Shown piece after piece: positions 6,151 through 52,596 of a stretch of 64,000 nt of DNA. The notes beneath the pieces are model-generated. The model worked only from the letters and a program-made list of their open reading frames with translations. It was not told the DNA's origin and did no database searches. Source of the DNA: Minisyncoccota bacterium (GTDB taxonomy: Bacteria; Patescibacteriota; Minisyncoccia; Phycocordibacterales; JABAAK01); assembly GCA_958295675.1 (NCBI GenBank), contig OY282360.1, forward strand, positions 658,026 to 722,025, given 5' to 3'. The position numbers were made by a program, and so were the translations under genes. Numbering within the stretch: position 1 is the first letter of the stretch; each line of letters begins with the position of its first letter.

Positions 6151-6164
6151 AGGTAACAGAAACA

Positions 6165-9200: not shown

Positions 9201-9963
9201 GCACACCGTTCACATCAACCAGTGCGACAGTTTCAAAGTTGCTTCTGGAAGATAATCCGAATCGGCGCACTCTGATGCCCTCAATACGGACATCTTCATT
9301 GCCTGCTGTGAGCACAAATGAGGTGAATGGCACCCGCTGTGCGCCCTGCACGGCATATGAGTCGCCAGGCTGCTGCCCGGCTGTTACTGCCAACGATCCT
9401 CCGGTAACACTGACACGGGTCGTCGGAGTTGTCGGAGCTACAGGCACCGACGGCAGATTTGTTGTTGGCTGCGCGGTACCACACACATTATTCGCTTGAT
9501 TTCGCGTTGATGTGTAGAATCCGCCGGTTCCGCTCGTCAACCCAATGGGAGCCAAAATCTGCGCGGAGTGTAACTCCTGGAACTTACTGACTGCTCGAGC
9601 AGTCGCAGGTCCATAGTAGGTGGTCTCATTGCCGGGAGATCCAGCTCCTGACGAAGCCACCTGAGTTTGAGGGTTACCATTCAGGAATCTTTGCAACTGG
9701 CGGACGTCATCGCCAGAAGATCCGATGGAAAGGTTCCTTGCCCATGTGTACGGACACGCAGCATTGCTGCTCGCCGCCGCAACTGTCGCCGGCGGTGTTG
9801 TCGCGCCGCTAAGCGCGGTCAACTGTGCCGTTAGCGCGGCAAGCTGTGCCTGCAAATCTTCAACGCTCTCCTGTGCATGTACTGTCGCCGAAAAGGCAAC
9901 CGCAACAGAAACGATGAAGGCAATAGAAACCAACCCTACAGTTAATTTACTTGCAATATTCAT
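6265..9963 (-). CDS. Large secreted acidic surface protein with an N-terminal signal peptide and a PG_binding_1-like domain
   Basis: 1232 aa. Signal peptide MNIASKLTVGLVSIAFIVSVAVAFSATVHA. Motif DDVRQLQRFLN..YYGPATARAVSKFQ. Long D/E-rich beta-type repeats. Confidence 0.7.
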   Translation of the reverse strand: MNIASKLTVGLVSIAFIVSVAVAFSATVHAQESVEDLQAQLAALTAQLTALSGATTPPATVAAASSNAACPYTWARNLSIGSSGDDVRQLQRFLNGNPQTQVASSGAGSPGNETTYYGPATARAVSKFQELHSAQILAPIGLTSGTGGFYTSTRNQANNVCGTAQPTTNLPSVPVAPTTPTTRVSVTGGSLAVTAGQQPGDSYAVQGAQRVPFTSFVLTAGNEDVRIEGIRVRRFGLSSRSNFETVALVDVNGVQIGSSRSLNSRDEATLGGNFVIPRNRSITLVVVGNITNESSDLDSGAIAGLEVSEVIADAAVQGQFPVRGAAHVMSSSVQLQTASVRVKSVESEVHLDEDTEVASVRISLGGSGADEEDAYLRSLTLDQNGSADEDEIGDVTVYVDDDEVDHDVTVDGDRYVITFGGRGALIEESDSITVSVEMNTDRGTDETIRFYLDDVVDVYVVGKDYGYGLPVSLGSNERQIEGNSNVEGEVATIQPGEVSSGGRIRGFEDEVVYGDDRVLGALEVEFEGEDVEMEDLTFDVELSGFRYNTGNDNDWKDADEDEVVLRGLHLRVDGEKVAFADDDVEFSKPSSSNAITETVDFSDTFTVDVRGEREVVFEVVADLDEAWSQFDGADLQFTLTDVDSAEGVRSEKDYAGTGEYFASNRAFEQVDIKGNVVNFRISDRDVDDDSFVGGADDVVFGTLEIDADDAVDDVEITSAYLTFEASGGEAVDGSSNDNPANLDDLNDCAVYDGDDKVADSRSSLTGMADLGDDDEVGGTGGDADAPEDDQIRFRFDDYTVDSGEESYLQIVCSIDDNAKNGHKFQLKTEVRASDKDRIEYEIGRDDFEYDLESGDASDIIAVSGMGTLSVVSRDPDETLTAVAVGERGVDGVDILKIKFEAEQEDAVIQDVYLSGLTLPAGPTPVNRSAIERLLQSATLTIDGETTNADGGDFVGTLTDVDPGAGTVNVENALAFENVNETVRVADGDVNATIELDLHGIRDSQNSGKAGQYLQAAKLVVVWEGSESDTETVTAHTIPSGNVTSAVAFPSVPTVSASGNGDDNRYKRGNNQKLYEFEVTVPDDAGEVYLGQVTLSVTGNTSILSDFNLRRGSTGVDSIATGTLSGDNLKFSFADNKIQTIDDDGRPVKFLVTANVGGVPDDASITIDLVADNKPDADKQVGLEIGAAKTAHNFVWSPNSLDEDGMANSNNTDWFSGWSIFDAEDVSDWTFEE

Positions 9964-10229
9964 AATCGATTAGGAATTTACTATTACTAATTGAAATAAT
10001 AATTTCAATGGAGTACCCGCTAATTGCGGATACAGATCACACAAAAACAATAAAATGTGTTTGCTCTTCGTGTGATGATTATATTGTATACGCTCCGCAA
10101 ACAGTGTCAAAATGTGCTGTGGAAAAGATGCAATACAACGAAAAATATGTCCTGCTATCATAGACACCTGAACCGACCGCGAACAGGAGAAAAGTGATGC
10201 TGTGTGAACGATGTCCGCGGAGATAAAAA

Positions 10230-12407
10230 GTGTGTGATAATAAAAAGGTATATATGGCGCGCAAAAAAAAGAAAAAAACAATACTCCGTAGATGCGCTGA
10301 CGGGTATCGCACTATTCCCGAGCGCGTCCGGGAAATCATATTCGGCGGCATCGCGACGCTAATCGCGGTGTTTTTCACGCTGGTGCTCATAAACGCTGCC
10401 GGTTCGTTCGGCATGACTATACGCGATACGCTGTTCTTGCGCAGCAACGGTGATCCGGCACTGCTTGGCTGGAGTTTCCTGCTGCTCATCGTGTTCTTCG
10501 CGTTTCTCGGATTGTCTCTTATCGCAAACATTCGACCGATATCGCACCTTCGTCTTTGGATTGGCAGCATGCTCGGCTTTTTCAGTATCGCGACATTTTT
10601 CGCGGCGAGTTTTGATGAGACGGCGGGCGGCAGTATCGGCAACATCGTGTTCAGCGCGCTGCACAATGTGCTCGGCGTATTCTCGTACATCCTTATCCCT
10701 ATCGGCATTCTCGGGTCGCTCTACATTCTCACCATGTTCTCTCCGACTACAATTTGGGATTGGCTTACCAGCCATAGAAATGATGACGAGGACGAAGATG
10801 AGGATGATGAGGAATACGACGATGAAGAAGACGAGGAAGAGTATGATGATAACGATGAAGAGGACGGAGATGAGGATGAATACGACGATGACGAAGAGGA
10901 AGACGACGAATACGAGGATGAAGAGGAGGAGGAAGATGACCGGCAGACACACGGAACAGAGATTGCGGCATACATCCCGCCGCCATTGGCATTGCTAAGT
11001 TCAGAACGAGGAAAGGGACGCGCGGAAAATACCAAGGCGCAGGCGCAGACAATCGCCCGCACACTCAAAAATTTCAAAATATCAGTTACAGTTGAAGAGG
11101 TCACCGTCGGTCCGACCTTCACCCGTTACGCGGTGCGTCCGGCTGAGGGCATACGACTGTCAAAAATCACCGGACTGCAGCAAAATCTTGAGCTTGCACT
11201 GGCAGCACACCCAATTCGAATTGAAGCACCGATCCCGGGCGAATCGCTGGTCGGTATTGAGGTGCCGAACTCCGCTCGTGCGACCGTCGGACTGCGAACA
11301 CTGCTTGAATCAAGCGAGTTTGAGAAAACAAGGGGTGCATTGCCGCTCGCGATCGGCAAAACAATCAACGGATCAGTATTCGCGAAAAGTTTATCAAAAA
11401 TGCCGCACGCATTGGTCGCCGGCACAACCGGATCGGGAAAAAGCGTGCTGATACACAACTTCATCCTGTCGCTTCTGTTTTCGTACGGTCCGCGTGATCT
11501 TCGCTTTATCTTCATAGATCCGAAACGGGTTGAACTGACATTGTATAAAGGAATACCGCACCTCTACACCGATCCAATTACGGAACCGAAGAAAGCGCTG
11601 CAGGCACTGGTATGGGTGGTAAACGAGATGGAGCGGCGGTATGAACTGCTTGAAGAACGCGGTGCTCGCGGCATTATCTCGTACAACGATGCCATTGAAA
11701 ACGAGGAAGAACGAATGCCGTACCTCGTGGTAGTAGTGGATGAGCTTGCCGACCTGATGCAGAGTTTCCCGCGGGAAATTGAGGGCAATATCGTCCGTAT
11801 CACACAAAAAAGCCGTGCGGTCGGCATCCATCTCATCATCTCCACGCAACGACCGTCAGTGAATATCATCACCGGCGTGGTAAAGGCAAATGTACCGGTG
11901 CGTGTCGCGTTGCAGGTGGCATCCGGCATTGATTCACGAACCATTTTAGACGCAACCGGTGCCGAAAACCTGATCGGTTCCGGCGATTTGCTCTTCGGTT
12001 CCGCCGAAAGCAAGAAACCGGTACGGGTGCAGTCGGCGTTCATTGATGAGCGGGAGGTGAAAAAAGTCGCGCAGCACATTATACGGGAAAACGGTGTCGC
12101 TGAAAATCTGATTGATGTGACACAAAAACAAAAGGGCGGAAACAGCGGCAGCTTTAACACGGACGATGATGATGACGATCTGTACGCCGACGCGCGGGAC
12201 ATTGTTATAACAGCAAAAAAGGCATCCACCTCCCTGCTTCAGCGCAAACTGAAAATCGGCTATTCCCGCGCCGCGCGACTGATTGATATGCTTGAAGAGC
12301 ACGGTGTGGTGGGACCGCAAATCGGTTCAAAGCCGCGGGAAATACTGGTTGAAAATAGTGATGACGGATTTGATGACGAAATGGAACACGCGGAACGGAA
12401 TGAATAG
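10230..12407 (+). CDS. ftsK: DNA translocase FtsK/SpoIIIE with a poly-acidic linker
   Basis: N-terminal TM segments. Walker A GTTGSGKS. VVVVDELADLM. C-terminal gamma domain LLQRKLKIGYSRAARLIDMLEE. The start could also be the Met at 10254. Confidence 0.9.
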   Translation: MCDNKKVYMARKKKKKTILRRCADGYRTIPERVREIIFGGIATLIAVFFTLVLINAAGSFGMTIRDTLFLRSNGDPALLGWSFLLLIVFFAFLGLSLIANIRPISHLRLWIGSMLGFFSIATFFAASFDETAGGSIGNIVFSALHNVLGVFSYILIPIGILGSLYILTMFSPTTIWDWLTSHRNDDEDEDEDDEEYDDEEDEEEYDDNDEEDGDEDEYDDDEEEDDEYEDEEEEEDDRQTHGTEIAAYIPPPLALLSSERGKGRAENTKAQAQTIARTLKNFKISVTVEEVTVGPTFTRYAVRPAEGIRLSKITGLQQNLELALAAHPIRIEAPIPGESLVGIEVPNSARATVGLRTLLESSEFEKTRGALPLAIGKTINGSVFAKSLSKMPHALVAGTTGSGKSVLIHNFILSLLFSYGPRDLRFIFIDPKRVELTLYKGIPHLYTDPITEPKKALQALVWVVNEMERRYELLEERGARGIISYNDAIENEEERMPYLVVVVDELADLMQSFPREIEGNIVRITQKSRAVGIHLIISTQRPSVNIITGVVKANVPVRVALQVASGIDSRTILDATGAENLIGSGDLLFGSAESKKPVRVQSAFIDEREVKKVAQHIIRENGVAENLIDVTQKQKGGNSGSFNTDDDDDDLYADARDIVITAKKASTSLLQRKLKIGYSRAARLIDMLEEHGVVGPQIGSKPREILVENSDDGFDDEMEHAERNE

Positions 12408-33090: not shown

Positions 33091-33164
33091 AAATACCAAA
33101 AAACTTAACAAATAAATTTGCAGGATAACCACATAAGATTAACCACTCATTCAAAAAATGCTTG

Positions 33165-33764
33165 TTATTCATTATTCATATGTTGCATGGTCATTTTTCC
33201 GAAGTTTCCTGTGCCAACGAAAAGTCCTATTGGCTCAAGGATATTAACACGGTAAACATTCTGATAGTCAATAAGTGCTTGTTTAGTTTTTGGACCAAAA
33301 TAATATGTTTCATTACCAAGTGAACCAGCTCCTGTTGTTGATACTGTAAAACCTCTGGTGTTTAAGTATTTTTGGAGACGACGCACATCTTCACCAACTG
33401 ATCCAACGCTGAGTGTTCTTGTAAATTTACTGTTAGTATTGCCAAAATATTGACTGTTCGGTTTTGGTTTCTTGTATGCCTCCCACACTTCATAGGTACC
33501 GTCTCTGTGACTTCGTATTGGCTCATATGGTTGTGGTACCCCTTTGCTTTGATGACAATGTCGTTGATTGTACGCTGTGCCACCCCAACTACCACAATTT
33601 GTTCGGCAATAATGACACCCATCACCGGCAGTTCTACCAGGATGAGCATAGACGGGTTGTATTATACTCAATACAAATATACTGAAGAATAAAAGAAATA
33701 ACACTGGGGTAATGGTAATAACTGTATCTTTAGGTATTTTATTTGTAGAGTTGGTGGTAGTCAT
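33165..33764 (-). CDS. Secreted Cys/His-rich protein with a PG_binding_1-like domain paralogous to the N-terminus of the 6265 protein
   Basis: GEDVRRLQKYLN..YYFGPKTKQALIDYQ..ILEPIGLFVGTG versus GDDVRQLQRFLN..YYGPATARAVSKFQ..ILAPIGLTSGTG. Confidence 0.6.
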   Translation of the reverse strand: MTTTNSTNKIPKDTVITITPVLFLLFFSIFVLSIIQPVYAHPGRTAGDGCHYCRTNCGSWGGTAYNQRHCHQSKGVPQPYEPIRSHRDGTYEVWEAYKKPKPNSQYFGNTNSKFTRTLSVGSVGEDVRRLQKYLNTRGFTVSTTGAGSLGNETYYFGPKTKQALIDYQNVYRVNILEPIGLFVGTGNFGKMTMQHMNNE

Positions 33765-33995
33765 ATGCGTAATGCTACTACCCTTTCAAGAAATAATACT
33801 AAAATAATCATAGTCTGTCAAATGCTCTTTTTTACTGACTAATTAGGTAGATGTAGGATAAAATGCCCGACTTATTCGGGTGTTTCTAGACCAAATACCC
33901 GATTTTTTAGCGTTTTTTCGGGTGTTTTACCTCTCAGAACAATACTTGAAAAATAGTACACATCCCTTTCTTGTTTTGGCAAATCCATACCACCA

Positions 33996-34565
33996 TTAAA
34001 CAGTCTCTAAAAAGTATTGCTTTGAATCTGCTAATGTATTTTTTTCAACTTTCGCTGGTCCTTCATCATCTTCAAAGAAGTCAATTTTTTCTATCTTCAC
34101 TCTTTTGCAATTTCCGTCATTCAAATCTGTTTCGTATTTTTTCCATGCATGATATTTATGCACTTCTTGAATAAGATCTTTTGGTGTGTAATTACTGTAA
34201 TTATTAAAGGAATAATCAATTACTTCTCTGTCAATCTCGGAAAGATAATCCTCATCCACCTTTCCTTTGATTCGTACCATATCCCATATATTGTTTCTTC
34301 TGGACACTCGCCTCCACATCTTCTTACTCATCTCCAATTCCTGTTCAGATAAATATTCATTAGCATGATCTATCAAATTCGTTGTGCTTGACGGCACAGG
34401 ACCATTTCTTAACGCAAAATACTCTTCCCGCTGCAGCAATTCACTTCCGTATTTTCTCAACTTATACACATCAGCAATAACCAGCAACTTAACAAGTTTG
34501 ATGACATCAGCCCCCTTACGACCAAATTTGTTGAGTAAGTGGGCAATTTTTTGTATATTTTCCAT
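33996..34565 (-). CDS. Panacea-domain (DUF4065, SocA/PanA-like) protein
   Basis: LVKLLVIADVYKLRKYGSELLQREEYFALRNGPVP. Confidence 0.5.
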   Translation of the reverse strand: MENIQKIAHLLNKFGRKGADVIKLVKLLVIADVYKLRKYGSELLQREEYFALRNGPVPSSTTNLIDHANEYLSEQELEMSKKMWRRVSRRNNIWDMVRIKGKVDEDYLSEIDREVIDYSFNNYSNYTPKDLIQEVHKYHAWKKYETDLNDGNCKRVKIEKIDFFEDDEGPAKVEKNTLADSKQYFLETV

Positions 34566-34930
34566 AAATTGAAAATATGCTTTCTACACACATATAGTAT
34601 ACATACGCTTTATCTTTCGGTGTTTATTTTCAAGATATTTCTAAGGCACTGAAACAATGCAAAAATCAAGTATTTTTGGTATATACTTCACCTTAAACAT
34701 TCGATATTTTGATAAATAATCATTTTTCACACATTCAATAATACCTTGTATTTATTGCGATTTGTATACTACTATGATAAATAATGAAATTAGTCGGTGA
34801 AAATAATTACAATTTTTGTTTCGTAAAAAAGCCCGAAAGAGGAAATGTCTTGTTATATACCCTATCATTCAGTTTCTCCAAATCCAGCAAAATTTTTTTC
34901 CGTCTTGGGCTTCCTCCTGAGTTATAAATC

Positions 34931-35197
34931 TTATTGCTGTATTTCTTTAAGCGTTGCTCCACACTCAAAATAATCTCCTATCACCCCAACCATTCTTTCT
35001 GCCGACACAGCATCACCGCTTATAATATACTCATCATTATTTTGTGATTCAAATACATCGTCAACGATAATACTAGCGCCCCGTTTAATCTCTTCCATAA
35101 TTAATTGCGACAGAAAATCACGCCTTTCCTGTCTAAAAGAATCAGCTACAAACACAGTCATTGAAAATTTCCTTTCTACTATCTTTTTAGTTCCCAT
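34931..35197 (-). CDS. Small hypothetical protein
   Basis: 88 aa ORF in an AT-rich island. No motifs. Confidence 0.25.
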   Translation of the reverse strand: MGTKKIVERKFSMTVFVADSFRQERRDFLSQLIMEEIKRGASIIVDDVFESQNNDEYIISGDAVSAERMVGVIGDYFECGATLKEIQQ

Positions 35198-35318
35198 ATA
35201 TCTTTGTTTAACATTATTTTACCCTGTTTTTTCAGATTTTACTGAGCACTCCCAACTAAATGCTTCCATTTTTTCCCAAACAACTACCTCTTTACATCCC
35301 GCCTTCCAATCTACCCTC

Positions 35319-37553
35319 TCAAAATTGAAAATCAGACCATTTTTTCAAGGTGATATCCTGAGCAATTTTCCAAACACCACGCTCTTTTTTCACAAAACCA
35401 CCTTTAAACTTTTTATTTTCTCCCAACCACTTTTCTAACGCCTGTGCCCGAATTTGTGCTGATTCTCCTTTTGCGGTGAAACCACCCTTAGTATCAATCA
35501 CCCAAACATCGTCCTCTGTTTTTATAAACCAATCAGGAAAGAACAACCCGCCATCATGTCTCCTTACAGAAAAATGCTCAGAACCATTATCTCCATTCTT
35601 ATACCACCACTTAACCGATTCATTATCCTCAAGATATGTTATAAAATCCATTTCGTTCTGATTGCCTTTATTTATATAGCAGGGCGATAATGCACATTTC
35701 TCACTTTCTATCTCCTCATAAATACTCGTGTAAGAAACACTGCTCAACGGTATAGAAATATCCTTTTTACTCATTTTTCTTTTATCTTTCTCCTCTTCCT
35801 CCTTTGTCCGCACAGAAACATATTTCTCTAATGCTTTATTTATCACAGGAAGAAGGATACTGTTTGCCTTCCTGCTCAGATCATTCACCACACACGGATA
35901 ATACTTATTTTTATCCTTGATGCCAACATAACTTTCAAACCATACATTGATGGCTGATTTCAACTTTCCGTAGGATCGTGCGATATTTTTAAATTTGGTC
36001 TCTTTCTCCTGTTTGTGCAGTATTTCAATACATAACTTCTTATACAATTTCTCCACATCGTTACGAGACATCTTTTCTCCGAAACTATCTGCCTCTTTAA
36101 TGTCTTGTATAAATTTATCATAATCCCGTATATCCTGATCAACTATCAAATCTACATCCACATCTTCGCCAAAATCAAAACACGACTGAAAAGGTTTTTT
36201 CTTCTCAAGCATTTTGTTCGCAACATCAATAAAGGTAAACTGAAAGGTTTTCCCAAGATCGTTGTAACTGGTTCTTTGTGAGACAAAGGTTTCTAGCGGT
36301 ATCTGATCAATACCTTCCTTAATAAATGCATGGTGTATTGCCGCTTGATTCTCCCCTTGGTAGTTATCGTAACTTTCAATAATCTCATTTTTTGTATAAG
36401 TGGTATACAAGTATGACATATTTAATTTTGACTTCGTATGATGCCTACCTTCGGGCATTCGCAAAACTCTACCTAACACCTGAACCTGAAAGACAGGATC
36501 TTTTGTTTCCCGATACATCAATAACACCTGAGCCCTCGGACAATCCCAACCAGTTGCAGGCGCTTGCTTAAAAAGCAGAACATCAACACCGTTATTGTTG
36601 ATGGTGATGTTCCCCAAATTCACTTTCTCGTTATCAAGCCAAATGGCGATAGTATTTTCATGGATACCCATATCCTTCAGCGACTTGAGAACAATATCTT
36701 TCTTTTTCTCCTCTTCCTGATTCGCACGATCGTCGTTTGGCAGTTGGATCATCAGTAATGGATTCACATCTACACCCTCTTTTGCGTACAGACCAGCAAT
36801 CTCTGCTCGCTGTTTGATTGCCAATTTGAGAACATGTTCATCCAAGTCCTTGACCGGTCTTTTTCTGTCAGTAAAATCCTCCCGCGTCTGAGACTTGATT
36901 GACTCCTTAATGAGACCGGCGCGTACAACATCTTCGTGTGAAATATTCACATCTATATTGCTTTGGTTTCTATGTGTCGCAGTGATATGCATCACTATTT
37001 TCGGATCAATCAATCGTATCTCTTCCTCGGCAAGTGAAGTACTGCTACTAGTATGCGCTTCATCAATGATGAGAATGATGGAACGATTTTCTGCCTTTGT
37101 TCTTTGAATCATGCCGTCCCATGTTATTTCCTGCTCACTCTCCCTCCTCAGTTTTCTCCCCTCCTTATTTCTCGCCTTAATCTTTGACCAGTTAAAAAAC
37201 AGTATTTCGTTTTGATTCAACACTTTCTCTCTGCTCAAACTGTCCAGTCCGGTCACTTCAACTTCAGACGCACCGCCATAGTACTCATTAAACTTATTTC
37301 TGCTCTGAGAAGCCAAATCTCCATCACTGGATCCGCCAATACTGACCCACAAAAAGGCAAAATCAACATTTAACAATTCTGGTGCATTCACAAGATCCCG
37401 CACAAACTGAGCCATCATAACGGTCTTACCGGATCCGGTCGGTGATTGAAACTTGATATCTTGCCTTGTGTCCCTGTCCCACCTGTGCAGTACATCCTTT
37501 TTCAATCTTTCTATTGCATCAATCTGAAATGGTTTTAGTATTGTGTTTTTCAT
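35319..37553 (-). CDS. res: Type III restriction enzyme Res subunit (SF2 helicase plus C-terminal PD-(D/E)xK)
   Basis: SPTGSGKT, IIDEAH, and a C-terminal ..VWVIDTKGG nuclease-like motif. Confidence 0.8.
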   Translation of the reverse strand: MKNTILKPFQIDAIERLKKDVLHRWDRDTRQDIKFQSPTGSGKTVMMAQFVRDLVNAPELLNVDFAFLWVSIGGSSDGDLASQSRNKFNEYYGGASEVEVTGLDSLSREKVLNQNEILFFNWSKIKARNKEGRKLRRESEQEITWDGMIQRTKAENRSIILIIDEAHTSSSTSLAEEEIRLIDPKIVMHITATHRNQSNIDVNISHEDVVRAGLIKESIKSQTREDFTDRKRPVKDLDEHVLKLAIKQRAEIAGLYAKEGVDVNPLLMIQLPNDDRANQEEEKKKDIVLKSLKDMGIHENTIAIWLDNEKVNLGNITINNNGVDVLLFKQAPATGWDCPRAQVLLMYRETKDPVFQVQVLGRVLRMPEGRHHTKSKLNMSYLYTTYTKNEIIESYDNYQGENQAAIHHAFIKEGIDQIPLETFVSQRTSYNDLGKTFQFTFIDVANKMLEKKKPFQSCFDFGEDVDVDLIVDQDIRDYDKFIQDIKEADSFGEKMSRNDVEKLYKKLCIEILHKQEKETKFKNIARSYGKLKSAINVWFESYVGIKDKNKYYPCVVNDLSRKANSILLPVINKALEKYVSVRTKEEEEKDKRKMSKKDISIPLSSVSYTSIYEEIESEKCALSPCYINKGNQNEMDFITYLEDNESVKWWYKNGDNGSEHFSVRRHDGGLFFPDWFIKTEDDVWVIDTKGGFTAKGESAQIRAQALEKWLGENKKFKGGFVKKERGVWKIAQDITLKKWSDFQF

Positions 37554-38386
37554 GTTTGTTCTTTACCTTTTCTCTTTTTTTCTCGTTCATACAAATTTAA
37601 CACTGTGGTGTGATTTTTTTTGTTTAAAATATTCGCTATTGCTGAATAAGTCATTTTTTTTTCATCTCTCAAAAAAACAACAATTCGAGACCTCTCATCA
37701 ACAACCTCCCTCTTCCTGCTTGGACCAAGAATAGCAGAAAGGCTAATATCTTTATTTTGTATGATTCCTTCCATCAATGAGGAGAGGCTTTCATCTGATC
37801 CACTGCCTATTAATCCAAGAGAATATGCATCATTTATATAAGTACATATATCTGACAATATTGATTGTGCCTTGCTTCTTGCTTGATTGAGATTACGAAG
37901 GTTACTATTACCTTCAAAATGTAAAATATTGTTTCTATGATTTTTCAAATCTATGCTCATTTTAATTAAAAATTCTCTTATCTTTCTAGTATTTTTATTA
38001 CTAAGATTCTCCAAATATTCTTCTATATTTTTGGTTTCTAATGATCTTCCTAGTGACCGATCATTCTTATAAAAACCGATATCTCGTAAAATTTTAAAAA
38101 CAAAACCTTCAAATGCTAAACACAGTGGAGCAATAATAAATGTATAGTCTTTCACTTCACCACGTAATGAATGATGCTTCATGAAATGTTTTTCCATAAC
38201 AAGATAATCTAGAATATACTTTCTTATTTGTGGACTTAAATACAACTTATTCCTCCTCCCTCCAAAAATCTCTTTGAATTGAATACCAGCATCACCTCTC
38301 TCTGTTTTTTTATATATATCCTGATCTATCCTGTTGTGACCGAAGCATTTTTTTATCTTTTTCTTTAAAAAATTAAATATTTTCAT
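37550..38386 (-). CDS. HEPN-like (R-N-x3-H) protein with a C-terminal DnaA domain-IV-like HTH, embedded between mod and res
   Basis: KNHRNNILHFEG (Rx4H) and C-terminal SRIVVFLRDEKKMTYSAIANILNKKNHTTVLNLYERE, similar to DnaA ..GGRDHTTVLHA. Confidence 0.45.
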   Translation of the reverse strand: MKIFNFLKKKIKKCFGHNRIDQDIYKKTERGDAGIQFKEIFGGRRNKLYLSPQIRKYILDYLVMEKHFMKHHSLRGEVKDYTFIIAPLCLAFEGFVFKILRDIGFYKNDRSLGRSLETKNIEEYLENLSNKNTRKIREFLIKMSIDLKNHRNNILHFEGNSNLRNLNQARSKAQSILSDICTYINDAYSLGLIGSGSDESLSSLMEGIIQNKDISLSAILGPSRKREVVDERSRIVVFLRDEKKMTYSAIANILNKKNHTTVLNLYEREKKRKGKEQT

Positions 38387-38387
38387 A

Positions 38388-40325
38388 CTACAAATTTAAA
38401 TTTTTATACACCCGCAGTATCGGCTCAGGTATGTCTTCCACTGAAACATTTTCATATTCCGCATAGTCGTTTTTCCAATCATCAGTACTTCCATGCGAAA
38501 ATATATATAACTTCACTTCCATTTTTTCCAAAATTTTCTTTTCTAAATCTTCAAGTTTTTTTAAGTTCTCCCGAAAGTAGATACCGACATATTTATCTAC
38601 CTCATCAGTAAATATCTGATACCAGTCATTTTTCTCTAATTCAGTAAAAGTATTTTCTTTCAAAGCAATCACATGACCGGCTTCATGGGTAAATTCTAAC
38701 CTTTGCCTATCAGGGACACGGTCTACATGCTCCACATCAACAAATTCCGTCTTCAAGTATTCCAAGCTGCCGCCCAAACCTTCCACCTTCTCACCGCTTC
38801 CTTTTTTCTTATATCCTTTCATCACTTTTTTTATTCTTGGCTGACATACACCTTCTGCAACACCACCATGTCCGTTACCGTTGTTATTTTCATTGTTCGT
38901 ACAGAGAATAAACTGACGATTGCCGCCGTCTTTTTTGTTTAATTCCAAAACCGCATGTCCGGCTGTTCCAGATCCAGCAAAAAAATCTAAAATGACCGCT
39001 TCTTTTTTATCACTACTCAAAATATCCAAAATGTCCAAAACTGCAAAAATGGACTTCGGATAATCAAAAGAATTTCTCTTTCCTAAAATTTTGTCAACAA
39101 GGACCGTTCCATGAGAAGAGGCATCATATTTTGGATCTATCCAAACTGTTTTTGCTTTTCTACCTTGTTTGATACGATCTTTCATATAAACTACATAACC
39201 ACTTCTACCTTCTTTGATCACAATATCCCCCCTCTCTACTGCCTGCATTAAAGAAGGTTTGGTTTGACGCCACACGCGTTTTCCACCTGCATTATCAATA
39301 GGTAAAATTTCAATCAAACCATCATCTTTCTGTACATCTATTTTTCCTCTTTTTGGATCATAGTATATTGGATAATATGAATTTGGTCTCTCCTCTGGTG
39401 TAGATAGCCCACCACTTCTCCTAAAGGGAAGTAATCTATATTTGGAAATATCGTCCTCAAATTTAAACAACCCTTCTTGTTCATCTGTTAATGGAAGATT
39501 GCTTATTACCGCTTTTTCTATATTTTTTGCATATACTAACCAATACTCGTGACTTGTTGCAAAAAATTTATTCGTTGTCCTGCCTCGTGGATTGCTTTCA
39601 ACAACCAAAAAACCAATTCTATTTTGTTCAAGAAAAATGTCATCCATAAGCAGTCCTAATGTAAAAAGTTCATAGTCATCAATCGTTGTGACAATCAATC
39701 CATCATCTTTGAGCAAGTGTTTCGCTAACCACAACCTTTTTGTCATGAATGATAACCATTTACTATGTCTAAACTGGTCATCTTTTTCTACATAACTATT
39801 GTTATAAACCCAACTTTGATTACCTGTGTTATACGGCGGATCAATGTAAATAACATCAATCTTACCTTTGTGTGTGTAGTTCAGCACCTGTAATGCATGA
39901 TAGTTATCACCCTCTATCATAATGTGCTTTTGTTCACCTTCTTTGCCGGCGACACTCATTTCAGAAACTGACTTCAATATCGGCGCCTCCCTCTTACACC
40001 GCTCAACAACTTCCTCCAGCTTATCCTCCCACACAAGCCCATATTTTCGCTGCTTGCTCAACAACTGCAATTCTTTTATTAGTTGCTCTTTTGTATAATC
40101 CGAATAATCCCGTCGTGCAGGCTGTCGACGCGATAGATCCGACACGAGACCTTTTTCTTTGATCTGTTTTATGTGCTCCGCTGTATACCGCCTATCTTTC
40201 CGTGTCCCGACTCTATCAGCAATCACCAGTCCCTGCTCATCCCAGTTGCGCAGAGTATCCTCATGCACACCGAGCATTTCTGCTACTTCACCGATTTTAT
40301 AATATTTTTCATTCTCTTTCTTCAT
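38388..40325 (-). CDS. mod: Type III R-M Mod methyltransferase with an N-terminal MerR-type HTH
   Basis: YKIGEVAEMLGVHEDTLRNWDEQGL (MerR HTH). VIYIDPPYNTG (motif IV). DFFAGSGTAGHAV (motif I). Confidence 0.8.
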   Translation of the reverse strand: MKKENEKYYKIGEVAEMLGVHEDTLRNWDEQGLVIADRVGTRKDRRYTAEHIKQIKEKGLVSDLSRRQPARRDYSDYTKEQLIKELQLLSKQRKYGLVWEDKLEEVVERCKREAPILKSVSEMSVAGKEGEQKHIMIEGDNYHALQVLNYTHKGKIDVIYIDPPYNTGNQSWVYNNSYVEKDDQFRHSKWLSFMTKRLWLAKHLLKDDGLIVTTIDDYELFTLGLLMDDIFLEQNRIGFLVVESNPRGRTTNKFFATSHEYWLVYAKNIEKAVISNLPLTDEQEGLFKFEDDISKYRLLPFRRSGGLSTPEERPNSYYPIYYDPKRGKIDVQKDDGLIEILPIDNAGGKRVWRQTKPSLMQAVERGDIVIKEGRSGYVVYMKDRIKQGRKAKTVWIDPKYDASSHGTVLVDKILGKRNSFDYPKSIFAVLDILDILSSDKKEAVILDFFAGSGTAGHAVLELNKKDGGNRQFILCTNNENNNGNGHGGVAEGVCQPRIKKVMKGYKKKGSGEKVEGLGGSLEYLKTEFVDVEHVDRVPDRQRLEFTHEAGHVIALKENTFTELEKNDWYQIFTDEVDKYVGIYFRENLKKLEDLEKKILEKMEVKLYIFSHGSTDDWKNDYAEYENVSVEDIPEPILRVYKNLNL

Positions 40326-41101
40326 ATTGAATGATAAAGTAGAATCGATGTGTGTAGTATAAACTCCGCATCTTCTTTTGTTGGATTCTGACCAGTGCCA
40401 CTAGTATGTTGACCTCTAAAATTAGCGAACCGTGAGCAAATTTCAAAAAGTTTTTTCTCATCGTCAACACTCTTGCCAATATATGATATTACTGCACTGG
40501 GATTTTCTTTCATCTGATTCAAAAATTTTCCTAAGCTCGGCTTTTGGTCTTTAGGATAATACTTATTCTTAATCTTTGTCTCCAGTGCATCAACACACTT
40601 AGAAACTGTTTTTGTAAGATCAGGGTCTTTTTTGTAAAAAGATTGCCATGCTTCTCTTAACGATGCATCTTCATTCAATACTTCCCTTGAGGCAGCTTCC
40701 AATCCGTCAGACACTCGTCGTTCTAAACCAACCTGCTCTGTCCCGATATGCGCAACCTTATACGCATGCCCACCCTCACACAAAATACTTTCTAAGGCCA
40801 TAGATTTTTCTGGTGTAGCATGATTTTGCACAAAAAAGTTCAATACTTCAATAACAAGATCAGATTCACTAAAAAAAGAAGAAATGGATCCAGGAATGAT
40901 ACATCTAAGAGAAATCTGCGCTTCCTGAATAAAAGATGATTTAAAAATAAAATCACCCCAAAGACCATAATGAAAAGTGTCACTGTATTCACATGTAACA
41001 ATCCATGTCACTATTGGTTGATGAAAATGTGCAGGAAAATCAGATGTTAATCCTTTCTTAAATCTCTTCTGATGACTTTGAGTTATAGGATTATAAACCA
41101 T
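40322..41101 (-). CDS. Hypothetical protein, first gene of the Type III operon (4-nt overlap with mod)
   Basis: 259 aa, AT-rich, tightly overlapped gene chain. Confidence 0.45.
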   Translation of the reverse strand: MVYNPITQSHQKRFKKGLTSDFPAHFHQPIVTWIVTCEYSDTFHYGLWGDFIFKSSFIQEAQISLRCIIPGSISSFFSESDLVIEVLNFFVQNHATPEKSMALESILCEGGHAYKVAHIGTEQVGLERRVSDGLEAASREVLNEDASLREAWQSFYKKDPDLTKTVSKCVDALETKIKNKYYPKDQKPSLGKFLNQMKENPSAVISYIGKSVDDEKKLFEICSRFANFRGQHTSGTGQNPTKEDAEFILHTSILLYHSI

Positions 41102-41364
41102 ATACTCCCATCGTAACAGATGGTATATATTTATGTCAAGTTTCCTAATTTACCAAAGTTGGAGGATTCGCCGGCGGATTGCACATGATTCTCCCGACCC
41201 ACAACAACGCATTTTCTTTTTTTGATTCATTCGTCGCATTTTTCCACGCGCTGTGCGGACACACCATTCGTTTCATCCCGTGCAGTGCATGGAAAGCACT
41301 CTACGATGCGCGCGCAACCAGCCACACGAACGGTAGTGAGTGTATATCTGCTTATTCTACCCAG

Positions 41365-41437
41365 TCCACCCGCCTGGACTCGAACCAGGAACCGCGTGTG
41401 TATAAGACACGTGCTCTACCAATTGAGCTACAGGTGG
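41365..41437 (-). tRNA. tRNA-Ile (anticodon UAU)
   Basis: CCACCTGTAGCTCAATTGGTAGAGCACGTGTCTTATACACACGCGGTTCCTGGTTCGAGTCCAGGCGGGTGGA. Anticodon loop CTTATAC. Confidence 0.8.
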
Positions 41438-45295: not shown

Positions 45296-45651
45296 GGGGG
45301 TGTCAGGCTTTGACAGTTGACATGCCCTGTGAATGGAATGCGTGGTAGTGAGAGGTCACTATAATCACCGAAACCTTGCAAATAAACTTGCACAGATGTT
45401 CAACAGAACACCTGCCCTCGCGTACGCATAACAATGCCCGTGAGGCATCCGCAGGATGATTCTCACTAATCCAAACGGATGTAAGATAATGTGAGAAACA
45501 CGGCGTGCTGTACTACGCTTCAAACAGCATACGAAAAGTAAACGAACGAAGCGGTTTTTGGTCTGTGAGCGAACCTATCGCCCACTACGCCACGAAAACA
45601 TTCTTCGCAGTGTCAATATGGACGGGAGTTCAATTCTCCCCACCTCCACCA
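45296..45651 (+). ncRNA. ssrA: tmRNA (ssrA)
   Basis: 5' GGGGGTG pairs with the 3' CACCTCC-A-CCA, including G3-U70. T-arm GGGAGTTCAATTCTCCC. Internal tag ORF ..gca aat aaa ctt gca cag atg ttc aac aga aca cct gcc ctc gcg tac gca taa (ANKLAQMFNRTPALAYA*). Adjacent to smpB. Confidence 0.85.
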
Positions 45652-45751: not shown

Positions 45752-46468
45752 TCAGCAATACTGCTGTAGATGCGATTTAAAAAATGATAGTGCGTTAACT
45801 AAAGATTCTCTTTTCATTGGCTTAAAAAACTCTCCCCTATGAATCGGTCTATCTACTTTTCTATCTCCTTCTAATAAGGTGATTATATTGAGTGTGTAGT
45901 CAAAGTAAGACATAAGGGTGTGGGTGCTGGTGCTACCAAATTTTACCTCTTTTAAAATCTCTGAATAATCGCCACCAAGCTGACTCTCAAGTTGAAAGAG
46001 CACAATCTCCGCATCAGGAGAAATTTCTTTTACAAATGAGCCATCAATTAAAATTCTCTTTATCATCGCGTTTTCTGTGTATGATTTACATTCAATGGCC
46101 ATTACGAGATTACCTCGCACATAAACAGGAACATCTATGTTAAATTTGTACGAATAATCTTTTATGTTTTTTCGTATGTGTTCTGCTATTTCGTTTTCAA
46201 TAGTATCTAAATAATCTTTTTTAAGCGGGACAGTGACAGATCCCTGCTCGGTGCTCAGATCATCAATATTGCCCACCATATCAAACCATGCTCGCTTCAC
46301 AAGACCTCGTGCAAATGCTTCAACAAAAGAACCCTTAATAGAACGCTCTATACCGCCCGTTGCGCGTTTTGTATCCTGGACCTCGGAACCTATTCTCTTA
46401 ACTAATGAGTTATATGCAGCTAATAAATCATCAATGGTTGGAATTTCCGGTAAATCTTCTATATTCAT
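45752..46468 (-). CDS. Putative Type II restriction endonuclease (PD-(D/E)xK)
   Basis: NIDVPVYVRGNLVMAIECKSY. 4 nt downstream of a methyltransferase gene in the same orientation. Confidence 0.5.
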   Translation of the reverse strand: MNIEDLPEIPTIDDLLAAYNSLVKRIGSEVQDTKRATGGIERSIKGSFVEAFARGLVKRAWFDMVGNIDDLSTEQGSVTVPLKKDYLDTIENEIAEHIRKNIKDYSYKFNIDVPVYVRGNLVMAIECKSYTENAMIKRILIDGSFVKEISPDAEIVLFQLESQLGGDYSEILKEVKFGSTSTHTLMSYFDYTLNIITLLEGDRKVDRPIHRGEFFKPMKRESLVNALSFFKSHLQQYC

Positions 46469-46471
46469 ATA

Positions 46472-47647
46472 TTAAAACAACGAGCTTGCTAATCGTTTCT
46501 CCGCAACATTACAATATTCCGTTGATATATCCACACCGAGATACCTTCTATCAAGCATACGAGCAACGCTGGTTGTTGTACCCACACCATTAAAAACATC
46601 CAATATGATGTCATTTTTGAAACTGAAAAGTTTGAGACATCGCGATACAAGATTTTCAGGAAACATTGCAGGGTGCCCATATTCTTTCATATTCCTTTCA
46701 GGTGCAATTGACCACTTCGCAACAACCCACTTTTTAAACTCTTCAGCCGTTATATCAATATCTTCAGTTTTTCCAGAGTGCTTCAAATCACCTTTACAAA
46801 AAACTTCAATAAACTCCCATGTGTATTTCAGATATGGACTACTCGGACTCTTCCAACTACCCCACGCAGTATACTTGCAGTTATAGTTATTTTTTTCCCA
46901 AAGTATTTCCCCTTTCCACAGCATCCCAATATCCAACAAATGTTTAGAGATAATATGATGTGTCGGTATATAATCTGAAAACAGCGGCTGTACATTAATA
47001 ATCATTCTTCCGCCATATTTTAGGACTCGTTTTGTTTCTTCTAAAATTGCAAATAACTGATTGAAATAATCATCCCACTTTTTATCATCTGCACCATTCT
47101 CATATTCAAGTCCGAAATTATACGGCGGTGAGGTAATCATCACATCAATACAATTATTTGGTAACTTCCTGAGTACATCCAAACTATCCGCACATACTAT
47201 TGCATTCTCATATTCAAACGGCAAGATATTTTCTTCTATGCTTTTTTCTGTGTTTCTAATACTGGAGGTTCTTTTTTCCGATTTTTGTTTTCTGTTCTTT
47301 ACCTTTCTCTCTTTATTAAAATCAACATACACTCTTTTCCCACTCTTGAGCCCGTATGATCCGATACTGTTAACCGCCTCCACAAGATCATCTATAGCAC
47401 TGAGAACCTCTTCCTCTCCGTTGTTCGCTTTTACCTCCAGTGCTCTGCTTTTGAACCGTTCAAAATCAAGATTATTCACAAACAGCTTCACCTCATATGA
47501 TCCCATTGGCTCAAAATAAATATGTCTATTAAATTCATCCAAGAAAGATTTGACAACGCGTTTGCTTTTCTCATCAAATTCTTTGGTTGTCTTCAGAGTA
47601 ACCTCCTTATATTCCATATATATAGTATATATCAGAAAATTACACAA
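46472..47647 (-). CDS. Beta-class DNA methyltransferase with an about 150 aa N-terminal extension
   Basis: VMITSPPYNFG (motif IV) and LDVFNGVGTT (motif I). Confidence 0.8.
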   Translation of the reverse strand: MCNFLIYTIYMEYKEVTLKTTKEFDEKSKRVVKSFLDEFNRHIYFEPMGSYEVKLFVNNLDFERFKSRALEVKANNGEEEVLSAIDDLVEAVNSIGSYGLKSGKRVYVDFNKERKVKNRKQKSEKRTSSIRNTEKSIEENILPFEYENAIVCADSLDVLRKLPNNCIDVMITSPPYNFGLEYENGADDKKWDDYFNQLFAILEETKRVLKYGGRMIINVQPLFSDYIPTHHIISKHLLDIGMLWKGEILWEKNNYNCKYTAWGSWKSPSSPYLKYTWEFIEVFCKGDLKHSGKTEDIDITAEEFKKWVVAKWSIAPERNMKEYGHPAMFPENLVSRCLKLFSFKNDIILDVFNGVGTTTSVARMLDRRYLGVDISTEYCNVAEKRLASSLF

Positions 47648-49484: not shown

Positions 49485-50495
49485 ATGTTTAAAAATATAT
49501 TTGTCATAATAACAATCATCATTATCATTTTCCTTGTTGTATTCTTTGCCAGGAGTCCGCAGGATAGGAGTTTCGTCACATTCGGTACAGGCGGTATCAC
49601 CGGTGTCTACTATCCGACAGGTGGGGCGATCAGCAGTTTAATCAACAAGAAACAGGACACATACAACATCAAGTCGGCAGTCGCGTCCACAGGCGGATCC
49701 GTGTTCAACATCAATGCAGTTCTGGCGGGTAACATAGAATTCGGTATCGCGCAGTCCGACCGGCAGTACGAGGCGTACAACGGACTTGCGGAATGGGAGT
49801 CCGAGGGACCTCAGAAAAACCTGCGATCGGTTTTTGCAATCTACCCCGAAGCAATCACCTTAGTCGCATCCGAAAAGAGCGAGGTCAGCACCGTTTCCGA
49901 CTTGCGTGATAAACGGGTGAACCTCGGCAATGTCGGCTCCGGACAACTACAGAACGCGCTTACAGTGCTGAAAGTATTCGGATTGTCTGAAGATGATGTG
50001 AAAGCGGAGATGGTTAAAGCGGCTGAAGCACCAGGCCTGCTCCAGGATGGGCGCATAGATGCGTTCTTCTACACAGTCGGACATCCGAATGGCAACATCA
50101 AGGAAGCGGCATCCGGTCGCATACCAGTACGCATCATTCCTATTGAAGGTCCCGGCATCAACACACTTATCGTTGAAAACCCGTTCTACAGCACAACAAC
50201 CATTCCCATAACGATGTATCCGAAGAGTGTCAATACGGAGGACATCCCAACATTCGGTGTGGCAGCAACACTGGTAACTTCAAGTGAAACATCGGAAGAC
50301 ATTGTCTACGCGGTCACAAAAGAAGTGTTTGAGAATTTGGATGACTTCAAGGCCTTCCATCCGGCATATGAAACCATAACACCTGAATCCATGCTGGAAG
50401 GACTTTCCGCCCCATTACATAAGGGTGCAATCCGCTACTACAAAGAAGCGGGATTGCTGGAAAGAATAGACGATCGGCTGCTCGTTGAAGCATAA
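49485..50495 (+). CDS. TRAP transporter TAXI-family solute-binding protein
   Basis: N-terminal TM/signal. FVTFGTGGITGVYYPTGGAI. Confidence 0.8.
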   Translation: MFKNIFVIITIIIIIFLVVFFARSPQDRSFVTFGTGGITGVYYPTGGAISSLINKKQDTYNIKSAVASTGGSVFNINAVLAGNIEFGIAQSDRQYEAYNGLAEWESEGPQKNLRSVFAIYPEAITLVASEKSEVSTVSDLRDKRVNLGNVGSGQLQNALTVLKVFGLSEDDVKAEMVKAAEAPGLLQDGRIDAFFYTVGHPNGNIKEAASGRIPVRIIPIEGPGINTLIVENPFYSTTTIPITMYPKSVNTEDIPTFGVAATLVTSSETSEDIVYAVTKEVFENLDDFKAFHPAYETITPESMLEGLSAPLHKGAIRYYKEAGLLERIDDRLLVEA

Positions 50496-50520
50496 TCGGA
50501 TATATCGCCGATAATCGGCG

Positions 50521-52596
50521 ATGGATATGCAACACAACATACGAAACACATTCAGAATACTGAAAGATCGGCTGAAACCGGAAGTGCATGAGGAGATAGA
50601 GGAAGAGATTGAAGGTATTAGTATAAAGCGCACACCGCTGCTGATTATAATCGTTTCAGTTGCATGGGCGTTGTTCCAGCTCGCGCTTCCCCAACTACTC
50701 CTATTGGACACATTAGTTATCCGTGCGGTGCATCTCGCATTCGCACTGACATTAGCGTTTCTCACCGCAAATTTGTGGAAACAATCAAAACCGACGACGC
50801 TCAAAAAACCGTTCCGCAAAATCATCCGCTATGCAGCGATCAGTGTATGTATCGCGATAATAATCACCGCGGCGTGCTATATCATCATTGACTGGCAGGG
50901 TATCGCGGAGCGTGCGGGCATATTACTGACACGCGACATGCTGATGGGTGTGCTGTTAATCGCCATTCTGTTGGAAGCGACACGGAGAAAAATAGGCATG
51001 GCACTGGTGCTTACCGCCGCATTTTTTATATTCTACGCGCTCTTCGCTTCACATTTCCCCGGCATACTCGCGTTTAGAGATGTCTCAATAGTTGAGTTTT
51101 TCAATCAAATAACACTCTCATTTGAGGGTATCTACGGCATACCGCTCGGCATATCCGCATCAACAATCTTCCTGTTCGTGCTAATGGGCGCACTTTTGGA
51201 GCGCGCCGGTGCGGCAAGATACTTCATCAATCTCGCGCTCGCGCTGGTCGGCAGATCAAGGGGCGGACCGGCAAAAGCGGCAGTCGCATCAAGTGCGATG
51301 ATCGGCACCATATCCGGCTCAAGCATAGCGAATGTCGCGACATCCGGCGCATTCACCATCCCGCTAATGAAAAAGACGGGATTTCCGGCGAAAAAAGCGG
51401 CTGCAATAGAAGTTGCGGCAAGTACAGACGGACAGCTTATGCCGCCGATTATGGGCGCAGCGGCGTTCATTATGGCGGAATATCTCAATGTCCCCTATGT
51501 GGAAATCATTAAAGCAGCCCTTATCCCCGCGATTATCTCTCTCGCCTCCCTGTTCTTTGTGGTGCACTTTGAGGCATCAAAACTCGGTTTGCAAAAACTC
51601 GCAAAAGAACATATACCCCGCTTCACGAAAGTGCTATGGGGTGGCGCGCACTACCTTGCGGTCATAGGTCTTCTGCTCTACGAACTATTGGTGATGCGCC
51701 ATTCACCGGAGATGTCGGTGTATAAAGCGGTGCTGCTGTTGCTAGTAATTATCTTTGTCCAGGAACTATGGCGCGGATATAAAAAAGGATCAATCAATAA
51801 GGGTTTACGAGGTGCAGGCAGAACTATTGTTGAGGGATGTATTCTCGGATCAAAAAATATGGTGATGGTCGCACTCGCGACCGCGATCGCAGGCATTATT
51901 ATCGGTGTTATTAATATGGGATTAGGCAGCAGCATCACGCAACTGGTCAGCGCGGTCTCGTTGGGAAACATATTCCTGTTGCTGCTATTCACTGCGATTG
52001 CCTGTATTATCCTCGGCATGGGACTACCGACCACGGCAACATATATTGTAATGGCATCGCTCACCGCGCCTATAATTCTTGAATTTGGAGCGGAAATCGG
52101 TTTCATTGTGCCACTCATCGCCGCACACCTCTTCTGCTTCTACTTCGGCATCCTCGCGGATGACACTCCGCCGGTCGGTGTCGCCGCATACACCGCGGCA
52201 ACCATAGCAAAATCAGATCCTATAAAAACAGGTTTGCAATCATTCTTCTATGACATCAGAGATGCCATCATTCCTTTCATGTTCATTCTGAACACCGATC
52301 TCATTCTGTACAATATTGAAAACTTTTGGCTCGGTCTCCTCATCGCCATAATGGGCATTCTCGGCGCTCTCTCTTTCACCAGTGCATTGCAAGGTTGGCT
52401 TCTGATAAAAAGCAGGTGGTATGAAAACATCCTGTGCATCGGCGCGGCACTCCTCTTCCTTAATCCGGCATTTATCGGATTTTTCATCAATATTGCGGTA
52501 CCGTACTATGGCTACATAGCCGGATTGGCGATCTTGATGGGAGTCGTATACATACAAAAAACAAGAAAAAGTAAACAAGTTACGCTGGATGTATAA
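50521..52596 (+). CDS. TRAP transporter fused 4TM/12TM permease (TAXI-associated)
   Basis: 691 aa polytopic membrane protein immediately downstream of the TAXI binding protein. Confidence 0.8.
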   Translation: MDMQHNIRNTFRILKDRLKPEVHEEIEEEIEGISIKRTPLLIIIVSVAWALFQLALPQLLLLDTLVIRAVHLAFALTLAFLTANLWKQSKPTTLKKPFRKIIRYAAISVCIAIIITAACYIIIDWQGIAERAGILLTRDMLMGVLLIAILLEATRRKIGMALVLTAAFFIFYALFASHFPGILAFRDVSIVEFFNQITLSFEGIYGIPLGISASTIFLFVLMGALLERAGAARYFINLALALVGRSRGGPAKAAVASSAMIGTISGSSIANVATSGAFTIPLMKKTGFPAKKAAAIEVAASTDGQLMPPIMGAAAFIMAEYLNVPYVEIIKAALIPAIISLASLFFVVHFEASKLGLQKLAKEHIPRFTKVLWGGAHYLAVIGLLLYELLVMRHSPEMSVYKAVLLLLVIIFVQELWRGYKKGSINKGLRGAGRTIVEGCILGSKNMVMVALATAIAGIIIGVINMGLGSSITQLVSAVSLGNIFLLLLFTAIACIILGMGLPTTATYIVMASLTAPIILEFGAEIGFIVPLIAAHLFCFYFGILADDTPPVGVAAYTAATIAKSDPIKTGLQSFFYDIRDAIIPFMFILNTDLILYNIENFWLGLLIAIMGILGALSFTSALQGWLLIKSRWYENILCIGAALLFLNPAFIGFFINIAVPYYGYIAGLAILMGVVYIQKTRKSKQVTLDV

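Follow-up and report, generated by a model that had tools for sequence, protein, structure and literature searches.

What is the function of a gene that joins a putative ribonuclease domain to a DnaA-like DNA-binding domain, and why does it lie between the two subunit genes of a Type III restriction-modification (R-M) system? The gene is found in a 64,000-nt stretch of contig OY282360.1 from a Minisyncoccota bacterium (positions 658,026 to 722,025 of the forward strand; the window), where an open reading frame (ORF) of 278 aa at 37550..38386 on the minus strand separates mod, the methyltransferase gene, from res, the restriction gene. A first-pass annotation had noted an Rx4H motif of the HEPN RNase kind and a C-terminus resembling the helix-turn-helix (HTH) of DnaA domain IV, and had proposed a DNA-sensing abortive-infection effector or a regulator. 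This idea is plausible, and the comparative data presented here favor the effector over the regulator. We consider it somewhat probable that the gene is an accessory, or 'embedded', RNA-targeting defense or abortive-infection cassette of the Type III operon, because the gene is exchangeable, the slot that it fills is used recurrently, the active site of its HEPN domain is conserved, and an RNase-type NYN gene takes its place in a sister locus, L019.

An RnlA/LsoA-type HEPN domain at the N-terminus

The predicted HEPN domain spans aa ~30-195 (37802..38299, minus strand). An exhaustive HMMER scan, which covered 1.84 billion cluster representatives, recovered ten relatives of aa ~35-195. Eight of these match the Pfam family RnlA-toxin_DBD, two of them, P0004 (29.1 bits) and P0016 (30.6 bits), above its cutoff of 27 bits. 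In the resulting 11-sequence alignment (A1; 22-28% identity), the invariant positions are D60, D80, P87, E93, G113, R151 and H156, and the A1 profile matches the HEPN, or Dmd-binding, domain of LsoA in the PDB (5hy3_A) with an E-value of 1.4e-8, the next match being at 0.1. LsoA is also the best PDB match of the single query (E 0.013), with RnnilH aligned on RhglfH of LsoA; against PADLOC, the single query matches CARF_HEPN at 0.006 and no HEC family. The AlphaFold2 (AF2) model has an all-helical core, with predicted local distance difference test (pLDDT) scores mostly of 80-94 over aa ~30-190, and the top Foldseek matches of this model are HEPN proteins, including RnlA (probability 1.00) and LsoA.

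The Rx4H motif, R151-NNIL-H156, is encoded at 37919..37936 on the minus strand and is predicted to be catalytic. Because R151 and H156 are invariant in A1 and align on the Rx4H of LsoA, the motif is well beyond a chance occurrence, and its initial recognition is borne out. A second predicted active-site residue, E93 (38108..38110, minus strand), is likewise invariant in the family and aligns on the Glu of the LsoA sequence 'AIEGF'. In RnlA, R255, E258, R318 and H323 are each essential, and R255 contacts the substrate (PMC8266594); E93, R151 and H156 are the counterparts of E258, R318 and H323.

Only ~30-45 residues precede the HEPN core, with no room taken by the TBP-like N-terminal domain (NTD) and NRD of RnlA and LsoA. 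When the island ORFs were scanned against Pfam and PADLOC, no RnlB/LsoB-type or other antitoxin match was found next to the gene, whose neighbors are mod and res. The alignments support an RnlA/LsoA-type HEPN domain, but an atypical one, in that the TBP-like domains, an RnlB-type neighbor and one active-site residue (R255, considered below) are all missing.

The C-terminus resembles DnaA domain IV

Residues 209-266 (37589..37762, minus strand) match the Pfam family Bac_DnaA_C with 34.5 bits, above the gathering cutoff of 31.5 (E 2.2e-8), over profile positions 9-66 of 69. The C-terminal peptide quoted in the first-pass annotation is present in the translation, and both of the domains proposed there have profile support. 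A profile of 24 DnaA_C sequences, with the window sequence first (A3), finds 1j1v_A in the PDB at E 1.2e-20, together with 3pvp, 2hcb, 1l8q, 8btg and 2z4r; a phmmer search of the PDB with the C-terminal domain as a single sequence missed DnaA, so that the profile was required. The AF2 model of aa 203-278 has a pLDDT of 87.5, and Foldseek superimposes it on 1j1v with a template modeling (TM) score of 0.80 and a root-mean-square deviation (rmsd) of 1.6 A and on 3pvp with 0.76 and 1.5 A; across 1j1v, 3pvp and 8btg the TM scores are 0.76-0.80 and the rmsd values 1.5-1.7 A.

The signature SR..V..R...LR....S...I......HTT is retained. The structure 1j1v shows domain IV of E. coli DnaA in complex with a DnaA box; in E. 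coli numbering, R224, R232, H259 and T260 align with R399, R407, H434 and T435, and the position of H439 is an Asn in the window protein. On the basis of profile and model, we regard the C-terminus as a genuine DnaA domain IV homologue. The protein as a whole is not a DnaA initiator, because DnaA equivalogs match only through the last ~70 residues and far below cutoff (NCBIfam TIGR00362, 28.4 bits versus 343.9). The HMMER scan also placed the domain among ~25 relatives that are mostly short stand-alone proteins or are joined to Sigma70_r4, RNA polymerase (RNAP) alpha-CTD, WhiB or HNH modules; true DnaA proteins are few among them.

The gene fills a slot between mod and res

The genes that flank the 278-aa ORF have the composition expected of a Type III system, as predicted from sequence: a beta-class N6/N4 methyltransferase, Mod, followed by Res, a superfamily 2 helicase with a nuclease. 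The 645-aa Mod (38388..40325, minus strand) matches Pfam N6_N4_Mtase (6e-25) and MerR_1 (2.6e-10) and PADLOC MTase_III (1.6e-79) and mad1 (2e-12), and its translation contains DPPY and FAGSGT motifs. The 744-aa Res (35319..37553, minus strand) matches Pfam ResIII (3.9e-16) and PADLOC REase_III (2.4e-18); GSGKT, DEAH and a C-terminal PD-(D/E)xK-like motif, PD...DTK, can be read in its translation, and L019 has a close counterpart. The ORF coordinates together with these family matches confirm the placement of the gene between mod and res.

Along the minus strand, from 41.1 to 35.3 kb, a 259-aa orphan ORF, mod, the 278-aa ORF and res are tightly packed. The stop codon of mod is separated from the ATG of the 278-aa ORF by 1 nt (TAG-T-ATG), and at the 3' end the stop codon overlaps the res start in an ATGA. 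These two junctions suggest translational coupling. An AT-rich inverted repeat surrounds the mod stop and the ORF start; the RNA fold there has a z-score of 0.42 and no significant palindrome was found at this site or at the promoter, and the repeat was dropped as a candidate functional element.

We surveyed the corresponding position in 80 metagenomic loci with Mod relatives, of which 75 have a downstream res. In 69 of these 75, mod and res abut. The slot is occupied in five distinct loci, a sixth apparent case, L044, being a split mod. The inserts are a 362-aa protein with NYN, a PIN-like domain of RNase type, in L019 and L020, a 1036-aa SMC/ABC-ATPase in L024 that matches PADLOC Ppl, mad3, AriA and LmuB, a protein with a weak DUF5677 match in L061, and a protein in L096 to which no family was assigned. 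None of the 80 loci contains an ORF of the HEPN family or a convincing DnaA_C ORF. The 278-aa protein is not homologous to any of the other inserts or to the product of the 259-aa gene, and the inserts are mutually unrelated as well.

L019 allows the limits of the insert to be drawn with precision. Compared with the window, identity is 79% for Res over its full length, 63% for Mod and 94% for the upstream tRNA-Ile, values by which the two loci carry the same R-M system. In a blastn comparison (74-78%), homology ends at 38380, in the first bases after the ATG of the 278-aa ORF, and restarts at 37556, at the res start, so that the cassette proper, without DNA homology to L019, occupies 37557..38379 on the minus strand. 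The GC content of the cassette, 0.296, is the lowest of any gene of the island; mod has 0.378 and res 0.392, while host genes are at about 0.49-0.53. Thus, the cassette is a discrete, exchangeable, lower-GC insert located exactly at the mod-res junction. The junction TAG-T-ATG-AAA opens both the window and the L019 cassettes. The L019 NYN ORF (7886-8974) opens with 56 nt duplicated from the 5' end of res (MKKITLKPFQ...), followed by predicted membrane-spanning hydrophobic segments and then the NYN domain. This duplication suggests that the cassette was inserted by recombination at the res start.

The fusion is rare and follows MerR-fused methylases

The joining of a HEPN domain to DnaA_C was found in 2 proteins among about 15 billion: the window protein and P0002, a 292-aa protein that is ~30% identical to it and colinear from residue 1. 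The earlier remark that the combination is unusual therefore holds for the fusion to DnaA domain IV, and does not hold for a HEPN gene in an R-M operon, which has long been described. Word-indexed homologue searches with the protein and with alignments A2 and A1 returned no sequences beyond those already found. Genome contigs searched with the 278-aa protein yielded no relative, annotated phage and plasmid collections no match, and PHROGs nothing meaningful.

P0002 is encoded in locus L001, in the order SMC/ABC-ATPase, MerR-HsdM, P0002, HsdS, HsdR and a YgjP-like protein; it thus lies directly after a MerR-fused methylase, in this case within a Type I system. In both loci the fusion gene starts 1-3 nt past the methylase stop. 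The part that Mod and the L001 HsdM have in common is the MerR HTH only (40% identity over 62 aa, E 6e-12), which in Mod corresponds to aa ~5-60 (40146..40313, minus strand). Among the 80 Mod relatives this N-terminus is found in L019 and L020 only, and most of the others align only from residue ~70-90 on. As a separate observation, mad1, the PADLOC profile that the MerR HTH of Mod matches (E 2e-12), is a component of the MADS system. In L001 we also noticed by eye a tRNA-like sequence just upstream of the R-M block.

Possible functions of the HEPN-DnaA_C protein

The idea of an embedded effector has a substantial background. HEPN proteins are the commonest toxins in R-M loci, usually without antitoxins (PMC3632139), and linkage to R-M genes has been described for at least 16 HEPN clades, PrrC-EcoprrI being the paradigm (PMC3710099). 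Genes embedded in defense operons very often prove, when validated, to be defenses themselves; among them, HEC-08, a HEPN protein that needs its Rx4-6H histidine, and HEC-09, which combines an HTH-like domain with NYN, protect against phage in experiments (10.1101/2024.01.29.577857). By analogy, the HEPN domain of the window protein may dimerize to form a composite Rx4H RNase site of the RnlA type, and cleavage of RNA would arrest or kill the infected cell once DNA restriction fails or is inhibited, following the logic of PrrC and of embedded defenses. The DnaA-type HTH would then stand in for a separate antitoxin as the control element: it might tether the RNase to DNA, sense foreign DNA or the loss of DNA binding, or autoregulate expression. 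In other words, we infer that it could act as an anchor, a sensor, a cis-inhibitor or an autoregulator.

Several findings weigh against this assignment. Taken as a single query, the protein scores below threshold against both relevant Pfam families (RnlA-toxin_DBD, E 0.013 and 16.3 bits versus a cutoff of 27; HEPN_RnaseLS, E 0.14 and 13.0 bits), and the HEPN assignment therefore rests on the family profile; the Foldseek E-values for the HEPN model are also non-significant (0.26 or worse). The position of the substrate-contacting R255 of RnlA is occupied by L90, three residues before E93; P0002 has Val there, and six of the other relatives have Lys. The DnaA_C domain of P0002 is more degenerate (26.1 bits, below the Pfam cutoff) and does not have the Arg and His-Thr that are retained at conserved positions of the window protein, so that a DNA specificity common to the two proteins is unlikely. 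A scan of the window for the DnaA-box consensus TTWTNCACA gave 11 sites versus 7.35 +/- 2.7 expected, which is not an enrichment, and the consensus is absent from the operon promoter. Finally, the association of the fusion with R-M systems and MerR-methylases is seen in n=2 loci, and the single-domain HEPN relatives occur in unrelated neighborhoods, none in an R-M context and with no consistent pattern.

We considered how the same observations might be explained if the protein were a regulator of the restriction gene. The gene directly precedes res, whose start it overlaps, and C genes have the same placement in Type II systems; in a C-protein-like controller, the HTH would bind an operator and time or limit res expression in a new host, with the HEPN domain reduced to a scaffold for dimerization or ligand binding. 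The DNA-binding domain appears bona fide by homology, keeping the DNA-contacting Arg and His-Thr positions of DnaA, and its closest relatives, which stand alone or accompany Sigma70_r4, RNAP alpha-CTD and WhiB in multi-HTH proteins, look regulator-like. This explanation is weakened, however, because the slot is mostly empty (69 of 75 related Type III systems manage without any gene there), because neither the membrane NYN protein that occupies it in the closest relative nor the ABC-ATPase found there elsewhere is a regulator, and because a scaffold would not need the family-wide invariance of the catalytic E, R and H. Moreover, Mod already has an HTH of its own, neither the junction nor the promoter contains a convincing operator or palindrome, and the 278-aa protein, with its enzyme-like domain and DnaA/sigma-r4-like HTH, does not resemble a C protein, which is a small Xre-type HTH. 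We consider a controller function quite unlikely.

The DnaA homology could instead point to interference with replication, the C-terminal module competing for DnaA boxes at the origins of invader or host and the HEPN domain being secondary. The module is a true DnaA domain IV homologue by profile, with the positions that we take to match R399, R407, H434 and T435 kept, but the lack of DnaA-box enrichment and the loss of these residues from P0002 speak against such competition, which would also leave the conserved HEPN active site and the R-M embedding unexplained; it is the least probable of the explanations, and we give it very little credence. A further alternative dispenses with a defensive role: the gene could be a selfish stabilization module, in which a toxin with a cis-neutralizing domain retains the island, or hitch-hiking cargo that arrived in a recombination slot tolerant of inserts, with no R-M link. 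The slot does take unrelated cargo, the cassette has a composition of its own, the single-domain relatives are scattered over unrelated neighborhoods, and a Panacea antitoxin-domain gene is present on the same island. Against this, both fusions follow a MerR-fused methylase across two R-M types, both start 1-3 nt past its stop, and embedded genes have often been validated as defenses, and we regard a selfish or cargo origin as unlikely.

Within the embedded-effector interpretation, a more specific model can be formulated, which on present comparisons we consider doubtful. The cassette might be a portable, antitoxin-free RnlA-type RNase gated in cis by the DnaA-type HTH and paired with the MerR-methylase graft. 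For example, the RNase would be inactive on DNA and be released or dimerize when binding is perturbed by phage DNA, by DNA-mimic anti-restriction proteins or by loss of the R-M complex. Fusion and MerR graft would form a matched pair that could be plugged into unrelated R-M types, Type III here and Type I in L001. If true, cis-gating would give HEPN toxins a new principle of sensing and would define an 'R-M guard' module in small-genome bacteria resembling the candidate phyla radiation (CPR).

Comparison with known systems

The closest characterized proteins are RnlA and LsoA (RNase LS; rnlAB, lsoAB), which belong to the same HEPN subfamily (Pfam RnlA-toxin_DBD, the 'Dmd-binding domain'). Their active-site E, R and H are conserved in the window protein, and the anti-phage context would be shared. 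In contrast to RnlA and LsoA, which have a TBP-like NTD and NRD and are accompanied by an RnlB or LsoB antitoxin gene, the window protein lacks these elements, carries an additional DnaA-type HTH at its C-terminus, has Leu as the counterpart of R255, and is embedded in an R-M operon; RnlAB has been presented as working apart from restriction at the DNA level (PMC3710099).

PrrC of the EcoprrI Type Ic operon offers a parallel in genetic organization, since it is likewise a HEPN RNase gene nested in R-M genes without a separate antitoxin, and it is the model of an R-M-coupled second-line defense. PrrC belongs to another HEPN clade, however, and has an N-terminal ABC-ATPase, whereas no ATPase domain was found in the window protein, where the partner is an HTH. 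The host systems also differ, Type Ic for PrrC versus Type III here and Type I for P0002, and, although embedding in R-M genes is seen in both of these loci, masking by the R-M complex would be a putative feature here. Single-gene RNase-type defenses within immune operons are also represented by HEC-08 (HEPN with Zn fingers) and HEC-09 (HTH-like with NYN) of Payne et al. 2024, a parallel extended by the NYN gene that occupies the same slot in L019. These differ from the window protein in HEPN family and accessory domain, and in their hosts, which are Hma, BREX, DISARM and Type I systems, Type III being outside that survey. The Hma-embedded HEC systems act autonomously, whereas PrrC is R-M-coupled; the putative RNase of the window may follow either mode.

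On the DNA-binding side, the window protein has the fold and signature of DnaA domain IV without the AAA+ or other DnaA domains, and the nearest relatives of its HTH are the stand-alone and multi-HTH DnaA_C modules, not initiators. The general idea of combining HEPN with a DNA-binding domain in R-M loci was described by Anantharaman et al. 2013 for EC042_2821/DUF3644 (with a winged HTH) and DUF4145 (with a sigma-HTH); the HEPN clade and the HTH type of the window protein both differ from these. The term 'DnaA' is absent from that HEPN survey (PMC3710099), and our literature search found no co-mention of HEPN with DnaA domain IV. HEPN genes in R-M loci (2013) and embedded RNase defenses (2024) are therefore already established; what is new is that the HEPN domain is of the RnlA/LsoA family, that its partner is DnaA domain IV, that the host is a Type III system and that the pairing with a MerR-methylase recurs.

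If the protein is active, embedded second-line RNase defense would extend to R-M systems of Type III and to the RnlA/LsoA family, hitherto viewed as stand-alone toxin-antitoxin pairs. The protein would also be an example of a HEPN toxin that may be controlled from within the same polypeptide, by a DNA-binding domain in place of an antitoxin. The exchange of HEPN for NYN between loci that are otherwise 75-79% identical amounts to a natural experiment and is directly clonable. It also marks the mod-res junction as a slot where defense cargo is exchanged by recombination, which is of use in searches by 'guilt-by-embedding'; to date, these have addressed Hma, BREX, DISARM and Type I systems only.

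Gene start and genomic neighborhood

The 278-aa reading of the gene comes from the ORF list and is accompanied by homologues in other metagenomes, and a public database contains a shorter form of 231 aa that starts at a TTG (L48) behind an internal GGAGG. The in-frame sequence GGAGGAGG (38243-38262, minus strand), ~7 nt ahead of this TTG, explains the shorter gene call, and the internal start could yield a shorter isoform. The long form is nevertheless supported over the 231-aa call by the alignment of P0002 from residue 1 and by the ATGAAA start kept at the mod junction of L019.

The R-M system resides on a low-GC island (33100..41360), with a GC content of 0.30-0.43 versus ~0.49 in the flanks. 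Its border is marked by a tRNA-Ile(TAT) gene found with ARAGORN (41364..41437, minus strand); a tRNA-Ile with this anticodon is uncommon in bacteria. Because the same tRNA (94% identical; L019 3278-3356) flanks the related island, we interpret it as a conserved site of integration and variable cargo. A search for att-like direct repeats at the island ends gave only chance-level matches, and a promoter and terminator scan gave counts at background. The first operon gene is the 259-aa orphan (40322..41101, minus strand), which overlaps the mod start and has a weak, nearly full-length PADLOC match to PDC-S32 (E 0.0023); it has no relative in the PDB and no relation to the HEPN family. At the same position L019 has PDC-M48A/B, including an LmuA-like protein of the metallo-beta-lactamase fold.

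SocA/Panacea antitoxin-domain genes lie within a few kb of the fusion gene or of a solo DnaA_C gene in three loci: in the window (33996-34565, minus strand), in L001 (1916-2404), which encodes P0002, and in L008 (1002-1454), which encodes P0008. In L001 the gene after it is weakly similar to RelE/YafQ. This proximity may reflect mere clustering in defense islands. P0008 is a solo DnaA_C protein of 82 aa, and L008 (positions 1-11373 of an ENA ERZ25068762 contig) is defense-rich, with SLATT_4, Panacea, an EcoO109I-type R-M pair, HSDR_N_2 and an N6_N4 methyltransferase with a RAMA domain. Neither P0008 nor P0030, another solo DnaA_C protein, has a HEPN partner in its neighborhood.

The host is probably a small-genome bacterium of the Patescibacteria/CPR kind: the best relatives of its RecG, at about 40% identity, come from Sungiibacteriota, Saccharibacteria and Gracilibacteria MAGs, and the source contig measures 724 kb. 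Elsewhere in the window, a second low-GC island (45752-47647, minus strand) directly follows the tmRNA gene at 45296-45651. It contains an N6_N4 methyltransferase (46472..47647; Pfam 7e-38) and an adjoining 238-aa ORF without a family match, which together are probably a Type II R-M pair. At 49485-52596 on the plus strand, there are genes for a TAXI/NMT1_3 solute-binding protein and a fused DctM-type TRAP transporter, which seems unexpected if the host does have a reduced CPR-type genome.

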